Origin: Deinococcus radiodurans R1 = ATCC 13939 = DSM 20539
GTDB taxonomy: Bacteria; Deinococcota; Deinococci; Deinococcales; Deinococcaceae
DNA length: 26,695 nt
Reading direction: 5' to 3'
Assembly: GCF_000008565.1 (NCBI RefSeq)
Contig: NC_001263.1
Span: forward strand, 1,380,175-1,406,869
Both the position numbers and the translations under genes were made by a program. The notes under the pieces are model-generated. The model saw only the letters and a program-made list of their open reading frames with translations, had not been told where the DNA came from and searched no databases. Every line of letters begins with the position of its first letter. Position 1 is the first letter of the stretch. Shown piece after piece: positions 1 through 10,742 of the stretch.

Positions 1-1496
1 CCGGGGACGCGGTGCGGGCACAGGACGTGAAGGCCGAGGACCATGAAACGCAGCCCCCTGCTCGCTACACCGAGGCCAGTCTGGTGCAGGCCCTCGAAGG
101 CGCGGGCATCGGGCGGCCCTCGACCTACGCGAGCATCCTGGGGACCATTCAAGACCGGGGCTACGCGCTGAAAAAGGGCACGGCGCTGGTGCCGTCGTGG
201 ACGGCGTTTGCGACCTCGGCGCTGTTGGAGCACCATTTCGGCACGCTGGTGGACTACGACTTCACCGCCAAGATGGAAGAGGACCTCGACGAAATCGCGG
301 GCGGGCGCGAGCACCGCGTGCCCTACCTGCGCCGCTTCTACCTCGGTGAAGAGGGCGAGGGGATGGCGCTCAAGCCGCTGATTGAGCGGCAGATGGGCGA
401 GATCGACGCACGCGGTATTGCCACCATCAAGGTGCCGAAGCTCGAAGGCAGCGGCATCGAGGTGCGAGTAGGCCGCTACGGGCCGTACATGCAGCGCGGC
501 GAGGACAAGGCCAACCTGCCCGAAGGCATGACGCCCGACGAACTGACGCTGGAAGTCGCCGAGGAACTGTTCAGCCGTCCGCAGGGCGACCGGGTGCTGG
601 GCGAAGACCCGGAGAGCGGTCACCCGGTCCTGGCCCGCGCCGGACGCTACGGTCCTTACGTGACGCTGGGCAACGAGAACCCGCCGCTGCGTTCGGCGAG
701 CCTCTTCCCCGGCGAGAAACTGGAAGACATGACGCTGGAGCGGGCGCTGCAACTGCTCACGCTGCCCCGGCTCATCGGCACCAGCGAAGGTGAAGAGGTC
801 TGGGCGCACAACGGCAAGTTCGGGCCGTACCTCAAGCGCGGCAGTGACTCGCGCAGTCTGGCGACCCACGAACAGCTTTTCACGGTGACGCTGCCCGAAG
901 CCGAGGCTCTGTTTCAGCAGCCCAAGTTCCGGGGCCGGGGCGTGGCCGCCGCGCCGCTCGCCACCTACGAGTACGAAGGCCGCACGCCGATTCTGCTCAA
1001 GTCGGGCCGCTTCGGGCCGTACCTTACCGATGGCGAGAAAAATGCCACCTTGCGTAAGGGCGAGGACCTGAACACCCTCGACCCGCAGCGGGCACGTGAC
1101 ATTCTGGAAGAGCGCGGCAAAGAGCCGCAGAAGAAGCCCGGCAAGGCAGGCACGAAAAAGGCGGCAGCGAGTAAGGCCCCCGCTAAAGCTGCGGCCAGCA
1201 AAACTGCGCCCAAGAAAGCGGCAGCCAAGCCAGCGGCGAAAAAAGCGGCACCGAAAAAGGCCGCCAGTAAATCTGCTAAAACTCCAGCCGCCAAAGCCGC
1301 ACCGCTGACCTGGGCGCAACTCAAGCCCTTCGTGGGCGTGCTGAGCGAGCCGGAACGCGCGCTGGTCACGGCCACCCGCGAGCAGGGCCGTAAGGTAGAG
1401 GACGTGGCCCCCGAACTCGGCCTGGACGTGAAAAAAGCCAAGGGCATGGCGCTGCAAGCGAGCAAGAAGCTGAATCAGGCAGCGCGGGGCGGATAA
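1..1496 (+). CDS. topA: DNA topoisomerase I, C-terminal part (5' end lies outside the window)
   Basis: The open frame runs from the window edge. Four copies of the non-zinc TopA C-terminal repeat are present (RVGRYGPYMQRG, RAGRYGPYVTLG, HNGKFGPYLKRG, KSGRFGPYLTDG). These are followed by a Lys/Ala/Pro-rich tail and a ~63-aa terminal module. Confidence 0.9.
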   Translation, partial: GDAVRAQDVKAEDHETQPPARYTEASLVQALEGAGIGRPSTYASILGTIQDRGYALKKGTALVPSWTAFATSALLEHHFGTLVDYDFTAKMEEDLDEIAGGREHRVPYLRRFYLGEEGEGMALKPLIERQMGEIDARGIATIKVPKLEGSGIEVRVGRYGPYMQRGEDKANLPEGMTPDELTLEVAEELFSRPQGDRVLGEDPESGHPVLARAGRYGPYVTLGNENPPLRSASLFPGEKLEDMTLERALQLLTLPRLIGTSEGEEVWAHNGKFGPYLKRGSDSRSLATHEQLFTVTLPEAEALFQQPKFRGRGVAAAPLATYEYEGRTPILLKSGRFGPYLTDGEKNATLRKGEDLNTLDPQRARDILEERGKEPQKKPGKAGTKKAAASKAPAKAAASKTAPKKAAAKPAAKKAAPKKAASKSAKTPAAKAAPLTWAQLKPFVGVLSEPERALVTATREQGRKVEDVAPELGLDVKKAKGMALQASKKLNQAARGG

Positions 1497-1545
1497 GTCC
1501 GGGTGAGTCACCTTTTCAAAAACAGCGGAGTTCGGCTCTAGCTCC

Positions 1546-1845
1546 ATGCCCATGACTCGTCGCCCGGCACCTCCCGCGCCGCTGCATCTCCCGCGCCTCG
1601 CACAAAGCATGGCAGGGCAATGGGTGTCGTTGCCGGGCTCCGCGGCGCGAGTCTTGGGGTTGACAGGGCGCGTGGCTGGGACGGCGCCGGGCTATCTCAT
1701 CTGCCTCGCTGGTGAAGTCGTGGTGGACCTGCCGACAGGAGATTTCGTGAAGCTGCGAGCAGGTGAGACCTTTCGAGTGGTGGAAGGGAAGTGGCAAGCC
1801 TTAGCTACAGCGGAAGGGACAGTGCTGTTGCATCTGTCGGAGTAG
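1546..1845 (+). CDS. Small hypothetical protein, possibly a single cupin-like beta-barrel; start uncertain (alternative Met at MAGQW)
   Basis: A 99-aa ORF in the gap between topA and the glucosidase gene, on the same strand. The C-terminal half (GEVVVDLPTGDFVKLRAGETFRVVEG) resembles a cupin strand pattern. No motif I can name with certainty. Confidence 0.35.
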   Translation: MPMTRRPAPPAPLHLPRLAQSMAGQWVSLPGSAARVLGLTGRVAGTAPGYLICLAGEVVVDLPTGDFVKLRAGETFRVVEGKWQALATAEGTVLLHLSE

Positions 1846-1860
1846 GGGCTCCTCTTCCCT

Positions 1861-1890
1861 TTGAATCCCGTGTCTTCTATTTCATATAAA
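1861..1890 (+). promoter_or_regulatory. Putative sigma-70-type promoter for the alpha-glucosidase gene
   Basis: TTGAAT (1861-1866), an 18-nt spacer, then TATAAA (1885-1890). It sits inside a strikingly AT-rich ~90-bp stretch in otherwise GC-rich DNA, about 60 nt upstream of the ATG at 1951. Confidence 0.4.
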
Positions 1891-1950
1891 AAATATTTTC
1901 CGGCGTCGCAATTCTCATCTGAAACGATTCAGTCCACCCTAAACTTGAGC

Positions 1951-3555
<1,605 letters not shown>

Positions 3556-6761: not shown

Positions 6762-7532
6762 ATGTCAACTTCAGGCGGCCTCATCATCGACTGGACCCAG
6801 ATGCACACCTACAACACCGTCATGGCCGTCGCGGCGGGCGCGGGACTGCTCTCGGTCGTCGCGCTCGCTCGGCAAACGGTGCGGGGCGAGCCGTTCGTGC
6901 CTGAAGCGTGGGCGGTGAATTTCGGCATTCTGGGGACGTTGATGACCCTCACCGGCGCCCATATGACGCTCACGTGGCCGCTGGCGAAGTATTTCCCCTT
7001 CGACAACATCATTTTCGGGGAACCGTCCCTGGCCTTCGGCGTCTTGCTGCTGGGCACCGCCGCGTACCTGTGGCGGCGGGCCGAGCACCTGCGCTCCTCC
7101 CCCGACCTGCTCGCCGAGATGGTGGCGTTTCTCAGGCCGCTGCAATTTCTGCTCGTCGGGCTGGGGCTGTCACTGCTCGGGATTGCGGCGGCGGGGGTGG
7201 CCTTCCGGCTGTTCGCCGCGCCGCCCGAGGAACCGATTTCGGGGCGCTTTGCCACTATGCCCTGGCTGGAAGCGAGCGCCATTTCGGGCCTCTACGCCCT
7301 GGTGGGGCTCACGGCGCTGCTGATTCCGCTGGCCCTGCGCCAAGACCCTCACCGCCTGGCCCAGTCGGGGCTGGTGCGCGCAGCAGGCTGGAGGGTGGGG
7401 CTGTCCGGGCTGGTTTGGCTGCTGTTCGGGGCGCTCAACTATTTCACCCACATCGGGCTAATCTTGAACCTCACACGACTAAAGTCGCGTGATTCTCACT
7501 TCGCAGACCATTGCCCGCCGAAGCAGGTCTGA
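6762..7532 (+). CDS. Multi-pass integral membrane protein; its 3' end is replaced by IS-derived sequence (native part 6762..7463, original tail at 9200..9220)
   Basis: Several long hydrophobic segments are present. After codon 234 (ATC at 7461-7463) the frame reads into the IS right end for 22 codons. Joining 7463 to 9200 restores ...GLI-INTTAK-stop. Confidence 0.75.
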
Positions 7533-7610
7533 CATAGCCTCCATGAGCGTTTAAGGTGTCTGAGATTCCCGCAGCCACCAACGCTTCACGCCGAATGTTC
7601 AGCGCAGCGT
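7448..7610 (-). ncRNA. Omega RNA / reRNA of TnpB: scaffold from the tnpB 3' end and IS right end, plus a ~16-nt guide read from flanking DNA (7463..7448). The 5' end cannot be fixed from sequence.
   Basis: Stable helices sit on the minus strand inside and just after the tnpB stop. One is CACGCGAC-UUUA-GUCGUGUG (7472-7491). Another is CCUGC-UUCG-GCGGG (7514-7527), with a flanking CAGACC/GGUCUG helix (7504-7509 / 7526-7531). Established knowledge of TnpB systems places the guide immediately 3' of the right end. No promoter or 5' end was mapped. Confidence 0.6.
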
Positions 7611-8697
7611 TCTCGTCTCGGTCATGGGTTTCCCCACAGTTCGGGCAAGTCCATGTACGGACGGCAAGATTCTTCACTTCGGGATTCTTGAATCCGCAGT
7701 CATGACACAACTGGCTAGATGGAAAGTAGGGGCTGACTTTAGATACCAGTCGCCCGTACCACGCTGCCTTGTATTCCAACTGCCGGATGAACTCACCCCA
7801 GCCCGCATCACTGATGCTCAGTGCAAGGCGGCGATTTTTCCGCATGTTGTCGGGTTTAAGGTGTTCGGTTCCGATGATTTCGTACTCACGCACCAGGGAG
7901 GTGGTGAGCTTGTGAAGGAAATCCTGACGCTTATTGACAATGCGCTTGTGAATCCGAGCCAGCTTGGTTTTCGCTTTCCCGTAACGTGCGCTGCCCTTCT
8001 TCCGTCTGGACAGGGTTTGCTGAGCTTTACGAAGTCTTTTCAGGGTGGAGCGGTAATATTTCGGATTCTGTTCATGCTTAAACCTCACGCCATCGGTCAC
8101 GATGGCAAAATCCTTGATGCCGACATCCACACCCGCTGCAAACTTGGGAGCCGCAGGCAGGTAGGGAATCTCGACTTCACAGAGAACGGACGCTTCGTAA
8201 TGGCCTTCGTGAATACGGCGCACAGTGACATTCAGAATCTTCCCTTGAATATCCTGCTGGCCCTTGGTTTTCACCCATCCCAGCTTAGGAAGTTTGAGCC
8301 TACCTTCCCCAATTTGGATGTTGTTGTTGGTGAATTGAGTCCGGTAGGACTCTCCCGTGCGCTTCTTTCTGAAACGTGGGAATCCTACCTTTTTACCGGA
8401 CTGCTTCACAGTCCGAAAGAAGTTCTTGTACGCGGTCTCAAGGTTTTTCAGCGAGTTCTGCAAAGCAAACTTATCTACTTCCGAGAGCCAGGAGGTTTCT
8501 TCAGCCTGCTTCAGAAGGGTCAGTTCGCTACTCGTTTGCCCGTAGGTCAGTCCCTTCCCGCTTTCCTTGTAGGCCGCAATGCGACGGGCAAGGAAGTGGT
8601 TGTAGACGAACCTTGCGCTACCCAGCGTGCGGTTAATCAGTTCAGTCTGAGCCGCATTTGGGTACAGCCTGACCACGAAAGCCTTATTCCTTATCAT
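7471..8697 (-). CDS. tnpB: TnpB, RuvC-fold RNA-guided DNA endonuclease (OrfB_IS605 family)
   Basis: 408 aa. RuvC-I is [10 protein letters not shown] (D191), RuvC-II is IIGTEHL (E278), RuvC-III is [10 protein letters not shown] (D361). The zinc ribbon is C331xxC334...C351xxC354. Length and residue numbers agree with my memory of ISDra2 TnpB. Confidence 0.95.
7472..7491 (-). promoter_or_regulatory. IS right-end subterminal imperfect hairpin (TnpA recognition; also an omega RNA 3' stem)
   Basis: An 8-bp stem with one A.C mismatch and a 4-nt loop, 8 nt from the inferred end. GAAT lies immediately 5' of the stem and TCAA is at the terminus (minus strand). Confidence 0.8.
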
Positions 8698-9106
8698 GCT
8701 GGCTCTCTATGTATTTCTGAATCTGAGCGCGGGTGTTTTCAGAAACAGTCAGGATGCAATACGACGGGTTCCAGAGATTGCCGCCCCACAGCTTTTCTTT
8801 CAACTGCGGGTAGGCCACGAACATCCGACGTGCGGAAGCGCCTTTCAGCGCCTTCACGAAGTCGGGGATGGCTTGCTGTGGGGTTGCGCTTAGCAGGAGG
8901 TGAACGTGGTCAGGCATGACTTCCATCGTGATGACTTCCAGCCCGTTCTGAGCGGCAATGTCACGCAGGATGTCTTTCAGTCCATCAGCAACCTCACCCA
9001 CCAACACCTGATGACGGTATTTCACGCACCAGATGAGGTGGTATTCAAGCTGATAGACGTAACCCCGGCCTTTCTTCATCTCAAGGGGAAGAATAACATA
9101 TGTCAT
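8684..9106 (-). CDS. tnpA: TnpA, IS200/IS605 Y1 (HUH) single-strand DNA transposase
   Basis: 140 aa, with the HUH motif PDHVHLLL (H67/H69) and the catalytic Tyr in [10 protein letters not shown] (Y132). The N-terminal [14 protein letters not shown] is typical of the Y1_Tnp family. Confidence 0.95.
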
Positions 9107-9163
9107 CTGGAAAAGCTAGAGGCTTCCGCTTTTCATCGCCCTTTTCAGGGCGAGAGGGGCTAA

Positions 9164-9183
9164 CTCATGACTGAAGTCACGAG
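9164..9183 (-). promoter_or_regulatory. IS left-end subterminal imperfect hairpin (TnpA recognition)
   Basis: CTCGTGAC-TTCA-GTCATGAG on the minus strand: an 8-bp stem with an A.C mismatch at the same stem position as the right-end hairpin, 16 nt from the left end. Confidence 0.8.
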
Positions 9184-9199
9184 TGTGCGCCCCTCAAGC

Positions 9200-9204
9200 A
9201 TCAA
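9200..9204 (-). promoter_or_regulatory. 5'-TTGAT target/cleavage pentanucleotide flanking the IS left end (equals the TnpB TAM)
   Basis: The plus strand reads ATCAA at 9200-9204, so the minus strand reads TTGAT immediately 5' of the element. ISDra2 is known to insert 3' of TTGAT. Confidence 0.85.
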
Positions 9205-9238
9205 CACCACCGCGAAGTAAGACACTACGAAAAAGAAG

Positions 9239-9278
9239 AGCTCCCGCCCCGGCACACTTAGCCGGAGCGGGGAGCTTT
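9239..9278. terminator. Bidirectional hairpin terminator between the original end of the membrane gene and the 9306..9905 gene
   Basis: AGCTCCCGCCCCGGC-ACACTTA-GCCGGAGCGGGGAGCT (one bulge), preceded by AAAAAGAAG and followed by TTT. Confidence 0.6.
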
Positions 9279-9305
9279 CAGTGGTCGGTCAAGCCGCCCT
9301 GCAAC

Positions 9306-9905
9306 TCAGAGCGCGTTGTGCTTCGCCTGAATGGTGCCTTTTTTGGCGTCCACGACCACGCTGCCGAAAGGCTGAGCGGCCCCGCTGTCCTTGAAGGTCA
9401 CCGTCACCGGCTTTTTCACGTCGTAGCGGGCGCTCTGGAGCTGGGCGTTCTTGAAGACCCAACCGCTCAGCCCCGGCTGGCTGAAGGTGGCCGAGGCGTC
9501 GCCGATGGAGTCTTTCATGTCGGCCAGCATCGCCTTGGTGGGCACGGTCTTGTCGCTGCTGTCGACGATGCTCAGGACGCCGGGTTTGCTGAAATCGACG
9601 ACATACAGGCCCCACACCTGCGCGAAGGCGCTGCCCTGCGGAAAGATGCTGAGGGCTTCGGTCAGGGTCTTGCCCGCCACCTTGAGCGTCTTGCCGTCGT
9701 CCACCACACTGAGGGTGCCGCACTTGAAATTCAGCGGGGTATTGAAGCTGACCGTTTTGCCCTTTACCTGCACGGTGAGGGTGCCGCCGTCGTCAAGACG
9801 CACAGTGTTGCATTGGGCGCCCGCCACCTGGGTCGGGGCCGCCTGAACAGAGGACAGCGCCAGGAGACCGGTCAGGCTAAGCAGCAGAGAAAAAGAAAAT
9901 CGCAT
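9306..9905 (-). CDS. Secreted hypothetical protein
   Basis: 199 aa with the signal peptide MRFSFSLLLSLTGLLALSSVQA-AP. The mature part is beta-strand-rich. No family recognised. Confidence 0.7.
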   Translation of the reverse strand: MRFSFSLLLSLTGLLALSSVQAAPTQVAGAQCNTVRLDDGGTLTVQVKGKTVSFNTPLNFKCGTLSVVDDGKTLKVAGKTLTEALSIFPQGSAFAQVWGLYVVDFSKPGVLSIVDSSDKTVPTKAMLADMKDSIGDASATFSQPGLSGWVFKNAQLQSARYDVKKPVTVTFKDSGAAQPFGSVVVDAKKGTIQAKHNAL

Positions 9906-10563: not shown

Positions 10564-10742
10564 GGGCGCAGAGTATAAGCGTGCCCCGGCCCGCTGCGGC
10601 AAGAGCGGGCCGGAGTCGAAGGCAGGGGCACGGACCCTGCAATTATCCTAAGACGTCTTTTCGTTGGCCCGGCGTACTTTCCTAAGATGGTCAGGTCCCA
10701 AAGTTCACGAATGTGACTCCGCACCGGCCTAGGGTGCGAGGC

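Follow-up and report, generated by a model that had tools for sequence, protein, structure and literature searches.

The closest described system is ISDra2, an insertion sequence (IS) of the IS200/IS605 family from Deinococcus radiodurans. ISDra2 has a published length of 1736 bp and inserts at the target 5'-TTGAT-3'; its irradiation-induced excision and the dispensability of its TnpB protein have already been published (PMC2806898). The RNA bound by TnpB, called omega-RNA or reRNA, comprises the 3' end of tnpB and the right end of the element, and its last approximately 16 nt are derived from the flanking DNA (Karvelis et al. 2021, Nature 599:692; PMC8612924). The same authors demonstrated target cleavage in vitro and in Escherichia coli and proposed a "homing" model for ISDra2, based on an analogy with group I introns (PMC8612924). 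It was subsequently shown that donor joints are cleaved, that co-expression of TnpB and TnpA results in more retention of Geobacillus elements, and that the interference of ISDra2 TnpB on native donor joints can be reproduced (Meers et al. 2023, bioRxiv 10.1101/2023.03.14.532601). Here we describe a copy of ISDra2 that interrupts the gene of a DUF981 membrane protein in a 26,695-nt stretch of the D. radiodurans R1 chromosome (NC_001263.1, positions 1,380,175 to 1,406,869), which we refer to as the window; all coordinates are those of the window.

We consider it highly probable (about 90%) that an intact ISDra2 is located 3' of TTGAT in the last codons of the DUF981 gene, that the joint formed by its excision is a target of TnpB, and that the element is retained by cleavage of the joint and recombination. 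This self-homing or retention logic had been put forward in an earlier note on this DNA, prepared from the nucleotide letters, and is supported here; it corresponds to the model that Karvelis et al. 2021 proposed for ISDra2 (PMC8612924). The observations at the locus are the identity of the element, its exact boundaries, the empty allele, the transposon-associated motif (TAM), the register of the omega-RNA, and a TnpB that is intact and has the sequence of the active enzyme. The cleavage activity, the TAM requirement, the guide length, and the effect on retention are taken from the literature.

Identity and boundaries of the element

The element occupies positions 7464 to 9199 on the minus strand, which gives a length of 1736 bp (9199-7464+1) when recomputed from the window letters. 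The active (top) strand of this copy of ISDra2 corresponds to the minus strand of the window, and its terminus at 7464-7467 (TTGA on the plus strand) reads ...GGTTCAA. The host sequence at 7448-7463 is CCACATCGGGCTAATC, the plus strand reading ...GGGCTAATC up to position 7463, and positions 9200-9220 on the other side of the element contain ATCAACACCACCGCGAAGTAA. The G+C content is 0.53 inside the element and about 0.65-0.70 around it.

All 1736 bp are found again, without a single difference, at other D. radiodurans loci, on contigs encoding an identical TnpB; one of these copies is beside a DctM gene and another is within a T2SSE ATPase gene. The identity between the copies starts and stops exactly at positions 7464 and 9199. 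TTGAT always precedes the left end of the other copies, and the flank of the right end differs at each locus. The TnpA encoded by the element is identical to PDB 2xm3 in 140 of 140 residues, and all 408 residues of its TnpB are identical to those of PDB 8bf8, 8ex9, and 8exa ("RNA-guided DNA endonuclease TnpB"). Judged by this agreement, the window element is ISDra2 itself, not a relative.

The removal of positions 7464..9199 produces a natural allele in which no base is duplicated or lost. There is no target-site duplication, and there are no terminal inverted repeats. Two independent lines of evidence confirm the boundaries, namely the records of the empty site and the recurrence of the element at other loci. 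The boundaries, the 1736-bp length, and the terminal TCAA given in the earlier note are exact to the base, since they were recomputed and are matched by six empty-site records and by the other copies.

The empty allele of the DUF981 gene

The insertion replaces the last six residues of the DUF981 protein by twenty-two residues encoded by the IS. The product of the occupied allele is 256 residues long and identical in all 256 of them to AAF10959.1 (WP_010888021.1, Q9RUK4). It is present on one D. radiodurans contig (2,648,638 bp), and we take the record bearing AAF10959.1 to be the original R1 chromosome sequence. A short-start form of the occupied allele is found on four contigs.

Joining position 7463 to 9200 keeps the frame of the membrane protein and ends it after six codons, as had been predicted, and the resulting DUF981 protein has 240 residues with the end ...GLI-INTTAK. 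This allele exists in sequence records. A protein search with the reconstructed product identified P0001, named "DUF981 domain-containing protein [Deinococcus radiodurans]", with 100% identity over 100% of the length, on 18 contigs, and a short-start form of the empty allele (P0124) is present on 318 contigs. The comparison with Deinococcus genomes lacking the insertion had been set as a test beforehand, and the predicted 400-bp junction was found to be exact in six fetched records, which are the complete D. radiodurans chromosomes CP150840.1, CP031500.1, CP094462.1, and CP015081.1, and two JGI metagenome contigs. In these six records ISDra2 is absent from the DUF981 site without a scar. A 6-kb reconstruction with 3 kb from each side aligned to CP031500.1 and CP015081.1 without gaps and with 100% identity. 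The in-frame restoration had been counted among converging lines of evidence. The boundaries indeed hold; however, the restored frame is not independent evidence of the mechanism and just shows that the native C-terminus is restored.

When the GTDB species-representative genomes were searched for exact matches, the empty junction was not found, and a search of these genomes with the right end of ISDra2 gave no D. radiodurans record. Many D. radiodurans assemblies elsewhere hold the empty junction, the right end of ISDra2, or both. An exact-sequence look-up of the 256-residue occupied product returned no record, though the cluster listing contains AAF10959.1. These missing matches are probably properties of the data sets, such as masking or indexing, and not biology.

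The diverged Deinococcus sp. PESE-13 (P0121) likewise encodes a protein ending with ...GLIINTTAK. Orthologues from other Deinococcus end with GLIIHTMAAS, GLIIHTMPK, or GLIINTMPKP, and the native C-terminus GLII(N/H)T... is conserved among orthologues. Because PESE-13 and the orthologues from other species share the uninterrupted C-terminus, and because the empty allele is widespread, these sequences identify the uninterrupted state of the DUF981 gene as ancestral and confine the insertion to a single lineage. In line with this, the copy number of ISDra2 is reported to vary, with seven copies in the published genome versus a single active copy at DR1651-DR1652 in ATCC 13939 (PMC2806898).

Alternatively, the empty alleles of other D. 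radiodurans might be the result of loss by precise excision, which would mean that TnpB-mediated retention had failed at the DUF981 locus. Scarless excision would leave a sequence identical to one that never contained the element, and the flanks show 100% identity among the resequenced chromosomes. Nevertheless, we consider such a loss unlikely, since the uninterrupted C-termini of PESE-13 and of the orthologues from other species speak against it, and the difference in copy number between ATCC 13939 and the published genome points to a gain in the sequenced lineage (PMC2806898). The question of gain or loss concerns the history of the locus only, and the mechanism is the same in both cases.

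Guide RNA, TAM, and target

The minus strand of the joined sequence reads ...GTGTTGAT followed directly by GATTAGCCCGATGTGG. The empty site therefore consists of the TAM, TTGAT, and then the 16 nt that are located directly downstream of the right end. The omega-RNA is numbered from -1, which is the last base of the transposon (Nakagawa et al. 2023, Nature 616:390; PMC10097598). The nucleotides quoted for it are -231G, -117T, -116G, -109G, -106G, -105G, -103A, -102U, -32G, -30A, -10U, -6G, -5U, -3C, and -2A (PMC10097598). With -1 placed at position 7464, all fifteen quoted nucleotides match the minus strand, and the next best register within offsets of -60 to +60 matches eight of the fifteen. 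In this register, the guide (+1..+16) corresponds to positions 7463..7448 and reads GAUUAGCCCGAUGUGG. The longer, 231-nt form of the omega-RNA has a predicted start at 7694, and the fold of a 166-nt RNA is more stable than those of shuffled sequences (z = -3.4). The proposal that the empty site presents the TAM immediately followed by the guide sequence is thus borne out.

The guide and target necessarily agree, because the flank of the right end is itself the template of the guide, and no statistics are needed for this. What is not trivial are the exact boundaries and TTGAT, together with the geometry in which scarless resealing by TnpA sets the TAM directly against the flank. No further site in the window matches the guide target with up to two mismatches.

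In the occupied state, the sole near-match to the TAM and target in the window is TTCAA followed by the target at 7448..7468, with two mismatches at TAM positions 3 and 5. Cryo-electron microscopy (cryo-EM) showed that K76 reads the G of the TAM, whereas Y52 and S56 contact its final T; the substitutions K76A and Y52A abolish cleavage (PMC10097598). Since TTCAA lacks the G and the final T of the TAM, which K76 and Y52 contact, its presence in the TAM position probably protects the occupied locus. The immunity of the occupied site had been ascribed to the 1736-bp separation of the TAM and target. The site does appear to be protected, though not solely by the separation, and the protection is better described as the replacement of TTGAT by TTCAA in front of the target.

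Proposed mechanism of retention

Based on the published activities and the positions determined here, a cycle can be proposed for the DUF981 locus. TnpA would excise the top strand, which is the minus strand of the window, as a single-stranded circle, and the flanks would be resealed without a scar. The excision would yield a donor joint in which TTGAT is followed by GATTAGCCCGATGTGG.... TnpB would load an omega-RNA with the scaffold transcribed from 7579..7464 and the 16-nt guide from read-through into 7463..7448, so that the bound RNA would end in GAUUAGCCCGAUGUGG (...GGUUCAA-GAUUAGCCCGAUGUGG). TnpB is expected to recognise the TAM and the complementary target at the joint, for which TTGATGATTAGCCCGATGTGG is the predicted substrate, and to introduce a double-strand break. 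TnpB cuts 15 bp from the TAM in the non-target strand and 20-21 bp in the target strand (PMC8612924), and the cuts in the empty allele would be near 7449 (non-target strand) and at 7443-7444 (target strand), within the part that codes for the DUF981 protein. ISDra2 would then be restored by recombination with a copy of the chromosome in which the element is still present. With the element in place, the target would be preceded by the TTCAA of the element, and the occupied locus would remain uncut. We infer both the course of this cycle in vivo and the coordinates of the cuts.

Nothing in the sequence contradicts the retention of ISDra2 by donor-joint cleavage, but several points limit the conclusion. 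The empty alleles are indistinguishable from alleles that never contained the element, and they prove the boundaries rather than excision at the DUF981 locus. The expression of the DUF981-locus copy and cleavage by it are addressed here by sequence alone. The assignment of the omega-RNA is based on the published numbering and not on a covariance model, because a search of Rfam identified no omega-RNA family at gathering thresholds in the whole window or at E <= 1 in positions 7300-9400; the sole match was a chance one outside the element. A literature search found no paper testing TTCAA directly as a TAM for ISDra2 TnpB. Finally, the retention tests of Meers et al. were performed with Geobacillus elements in E. 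coli, not with ISDra2 in Deinococcus (bioRxiv 10.1101/2023.03.14.532601); for ISDra2 itself, the evidence of retention is indirect and consists of the inhibition of excision by TnpB described in earlier work (cited in PMC8612924).

Before 2021, TnpB was regarded as restraining the excision and insertion carried out by TnpA. If it were such a negative regulator and not a homing nuclease, the geometry of the TAM and guide would be incidental. TnpB was reported to inhibit the excision and integration of ISDra2 in earlier work, which Karvelis et al. cited as needing to be revisited (PMC8612924), and TnpB is dispensable for both excision and insertion (PMC2806898). However, the cleavage of donor joints by itself predicts that fewer excision products are recovered. 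RNA-guided, TAM-dependent cleavage of double-stranded DNA by the identical protein, with guides other than that of the DUF981 copy, was shown biochemically and structurally (PMC8612924, PMC10097598), and retention depended on the co-expression of TnpB (Meers et al. 2023, bioRxiv 10.1101/2023.03.14.532601). A purely regulatory role of TnpB is therefore very improbable. There is virtually no chance that the boundaries are wrong by a few bases, with the TAM and the guide-matching sequence not adjacent after excision and their fit an artefact of reading: no evidence supporting such a shift was found, the related element L008, in which the inferred left-end boundary is not directly after TTGAT, has this boundary from a BLAST alignment with 79-82% identity and not from an empty site, and the shift is refuted by the exact junctions in the six records, the gapless 6-kb match to two chromosomes, the ends of the identity between copies, and the published length of 1736 bp.

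Besides protecting itself, the element might change how the host membrane protein is expressed or how it functions. Its guide, like any transcript that reads through the right end, lies antisense to the DUF981 mRNA at the 3' end of the latter; together with the exchanged C-terminus, these RNAs could therefore affect the protein, although we regard such an effect as decidedly unlikely. R1 stocks with and without the insertion could provide a natural test of how far the retention of ISDra2 depends on TnpB in the native host, for which no direct measurement is known to us.

Genes and ends of the element

The features of the locus are listed in Table 1. The genes tnpB and tnpA overlap by 14 bp. 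The stop codon of tnpB, TGA at 7473..7471 on the minus strand, is just 7 nt from the end of the element. Because of the proximity of the stop codon to the terminus, the tnpB coding sequence (approximately codons 370 to 408) contains the hairpin of the right end and the greater part of the omega-RNA scaffold. The corresponding C-terminal region of TnpB was reported to be disordered and dispensable (PMC10097598).

Table 1 Features of the ISDra2 insertion in the DUF981 gene (window coordinates).
Feature	Position	Strand	Basis or remark
DUF981 membrane-protein gene, occupied allele, 234 native and 22 IS-encoded codons	6762..7532	+	Pfam DUF981, E = 1.9e-37, residues 16-231
Right-end flank GATTAGCCCGATGTGG, putative template of the 16-nt guide and predicted post-excision TnpB target	7448..7463	-	inside DUF981 coding sequence
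Complete ISDra2, IS200/IS605 family, 1736 bp	7464..9199	-	identical to other D. radiodurans copies
TTCAA, right-end terminal motif (transposon-encoded motif)	7464..7468	-	takes TAM position beside target when occupied
Omega-RNA (reRNA) scaffold, -116..-1	7464..7579	-	overlaps tnpB 3' end and right end; published numbering
tnpB, RNA-guided RuvC nuclease with zinc-finger/TNB domain, 408 aa	7471..8697	-	Pfam HTH_OrfB_IS605 PF12323, OrfB_IS605 PF01385, Cas12f1-like_TNB PF07282
tnpA, Y1 HUH transposase, 140 aa	8684..9106	-	Pfam Y1_Tnp PF01797, E = 2.3e-43
Left end, non-coding, with subterminal hairpins, upstream of tnpA	9107..9199	-	DNA fold
TTGAT, TnpA target/cleavage pentanucleotide and TnpB TAM	9200..9204	-	abuts left end; host DNA
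Displaced native 3' end of DUF981 gene (INTTAK and stop)	9200..9220	+	reconstructed join

The top strand of the left end folds into a nested imperfect palindrome and a second hairpin with a stability of -22.7 kcal/mol (z = -5.5), and none of 200 shuffled sequences was as stable. The right end contains a 9-bp stem, CACGCGACT/AGTCGTGTG, just inside the terminus, which is clear, though the z-score of the 66-nt piece is only -1.9. A repeat search with a seed of 6 did not report the end hairpins, whereas folding did. The hairpins of both ends fit the features expected for recognition by TnpA. The TTGAT at 9204..9200 on the minus strand corresponds to the Ile-Asn codons of the DUF981 gene on the plus strand. 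TTGAT also adjoins the left end in the related elements L007, L011, and L015.

An open reading frame (ORF) of 431 residues at 7624..8919 on the plus strand is antisense to tnpB and to a part of tnpA, in the exact antisense codon frame of tnpB. Codons that produce antisense stops (TTA, CTA, or TCA) are present in tnpB only at positions 379, 382, and 406, and about 8-9 would be expected from the use of A-ending codons in other four-fold families. A relative with 79% identity (L011) also has an open antisense ORF, of 476 residues (1403..2833, minus strand). We rejected the 431-residue ORF as a gene, because the antisense products of the two elements are 53% identical versus 85% for TnpB. The ORF looks like an artefact of codon usage, as found opposite many genes of the window.

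Related elements and the surrounding window

The ISDra2 copy in L019 (CBCRWM010000001.1) has the left flank AATGGCCTTGAT, the same as the copy at the DctM locus (L017 and L021), and a different right flank, which leads into a gene containing SNF2 and LAGLIDADG. The mixture of flanks would fit recombination between IS copies, a different arrangement of the strain, or a misassembly. In a copy of this type, the new right flank would re-specify the guide.

The exact 28-nt terminus of the right end of ISDra2 is present in elements of other Deinococcus genomes and in one contig assigned by binning to Nostoc sp. JL33 (L007-L016, especially L015 4462..5848 on the minus strand and L007 2762..4190). Several of these elements contain tnpB only and lack tnpA; they are approximately 1.39-1.43 kb long, with TTGAT still in front. 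The last 32 nt of the Nostoc-binned copy are 100% identical to ISDra2, blastn aligns almost nothing else of the element, and the copy contains a 422-residue ORF, the translation of which was judged by eye to be TnpB-like. The shared letters suggest a strong constraint on the terminus, which includes the hairpin, the pseudoknot strand, and TTCAA, or else a recent transfer or mis-binning.

The remainder of the window is ordinary chromosome. According to Pfam, its other genes encode a topoisomerase I fragment, alpha-amylase, amidase, MsrB (SelR), two TetR regulators, YchF, a cell-wall amidase, an AIR-synthase-like protein, and FGase; there is also a 199-residue protein without a Pfam match. No tRNA genes were found in the window, and its two tandem repeats are short and low-scoring. 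The GC skew across the window is too slight to reveal the direction of replication at the locus, and with it whether the lagging strand is copied from the top strand, and the chromosome records have different start points. The chromosome CP150840.1 contains a 1065-bp insertion (L001 5154..6218) with a DDE_3 (IS630-like) transposase at a duplicated TA (window positions 10650-10651). This insertion, which the window and the other chromosomes do not have, is thus polymorphic as well, at a distance of 1.4 kb from the site of ISDra2.

Comparison with known systems

The finding is correct and its mechanism is already known; nothing biological is added to the ISDra2 publications of 2021-2023, which reportedly include a second cryo-EM study of ISDra2 TnpB by Sasnauskas et al. 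2023. Most of the checks suggested in the earlier note have already been carried out in published work. The facts specific to the locus are the guide of the DUF981 copy and the presence of the insertion on few contigs and of the empty allele on many. The raw sequence alone was enough to recover the boundaries of an IS200/IS605 element exactly, as well as the logic of its TAM and guide, and both are right to the base.

The DUF981 copy shares with the published ISDra2 system the length of 1736 bp, TnpA and TnpB, TTGAT at the left end and TTCAA at the right end, the register of the scaffold, and the 16-nt guide derived from the flank. The only difference is the insertion site and hence the guide, GAUUAGCCCGAUGUGG, inside the DUF981 gene. 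In the ISGst elements of Geobacillus stearothermophilus (Meers et al. 2023), the scarless joint likewise consists of the TAM and the flank of the right end, the nuclease and transposase read one motif, and the TAM and transposon-encoded motif differ at positions 3 and 5, like TTGAT and TTCAA. These elements differ from ISDra2 in their host, in the TAM, which is TTTAT, and in their TnpB or IscB orthologues, and their retention was measured in E. coli.

The homing endonucleases of group I introns and inteins, to which Karvelis et al. and Meers et al. drew the analogy, are likewise nucleases encoded by selfish elements; they cleave only alleles that lack the element, which is then copied in again during repair. 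Unlike ISDra2, which uses an RNA guide re-specified at each insertion site, homing endonucleases have a fixed protein-DNA interface. Furthermore, the empty allele that TnpB is expected to cleave is produced by the element's own transposase.

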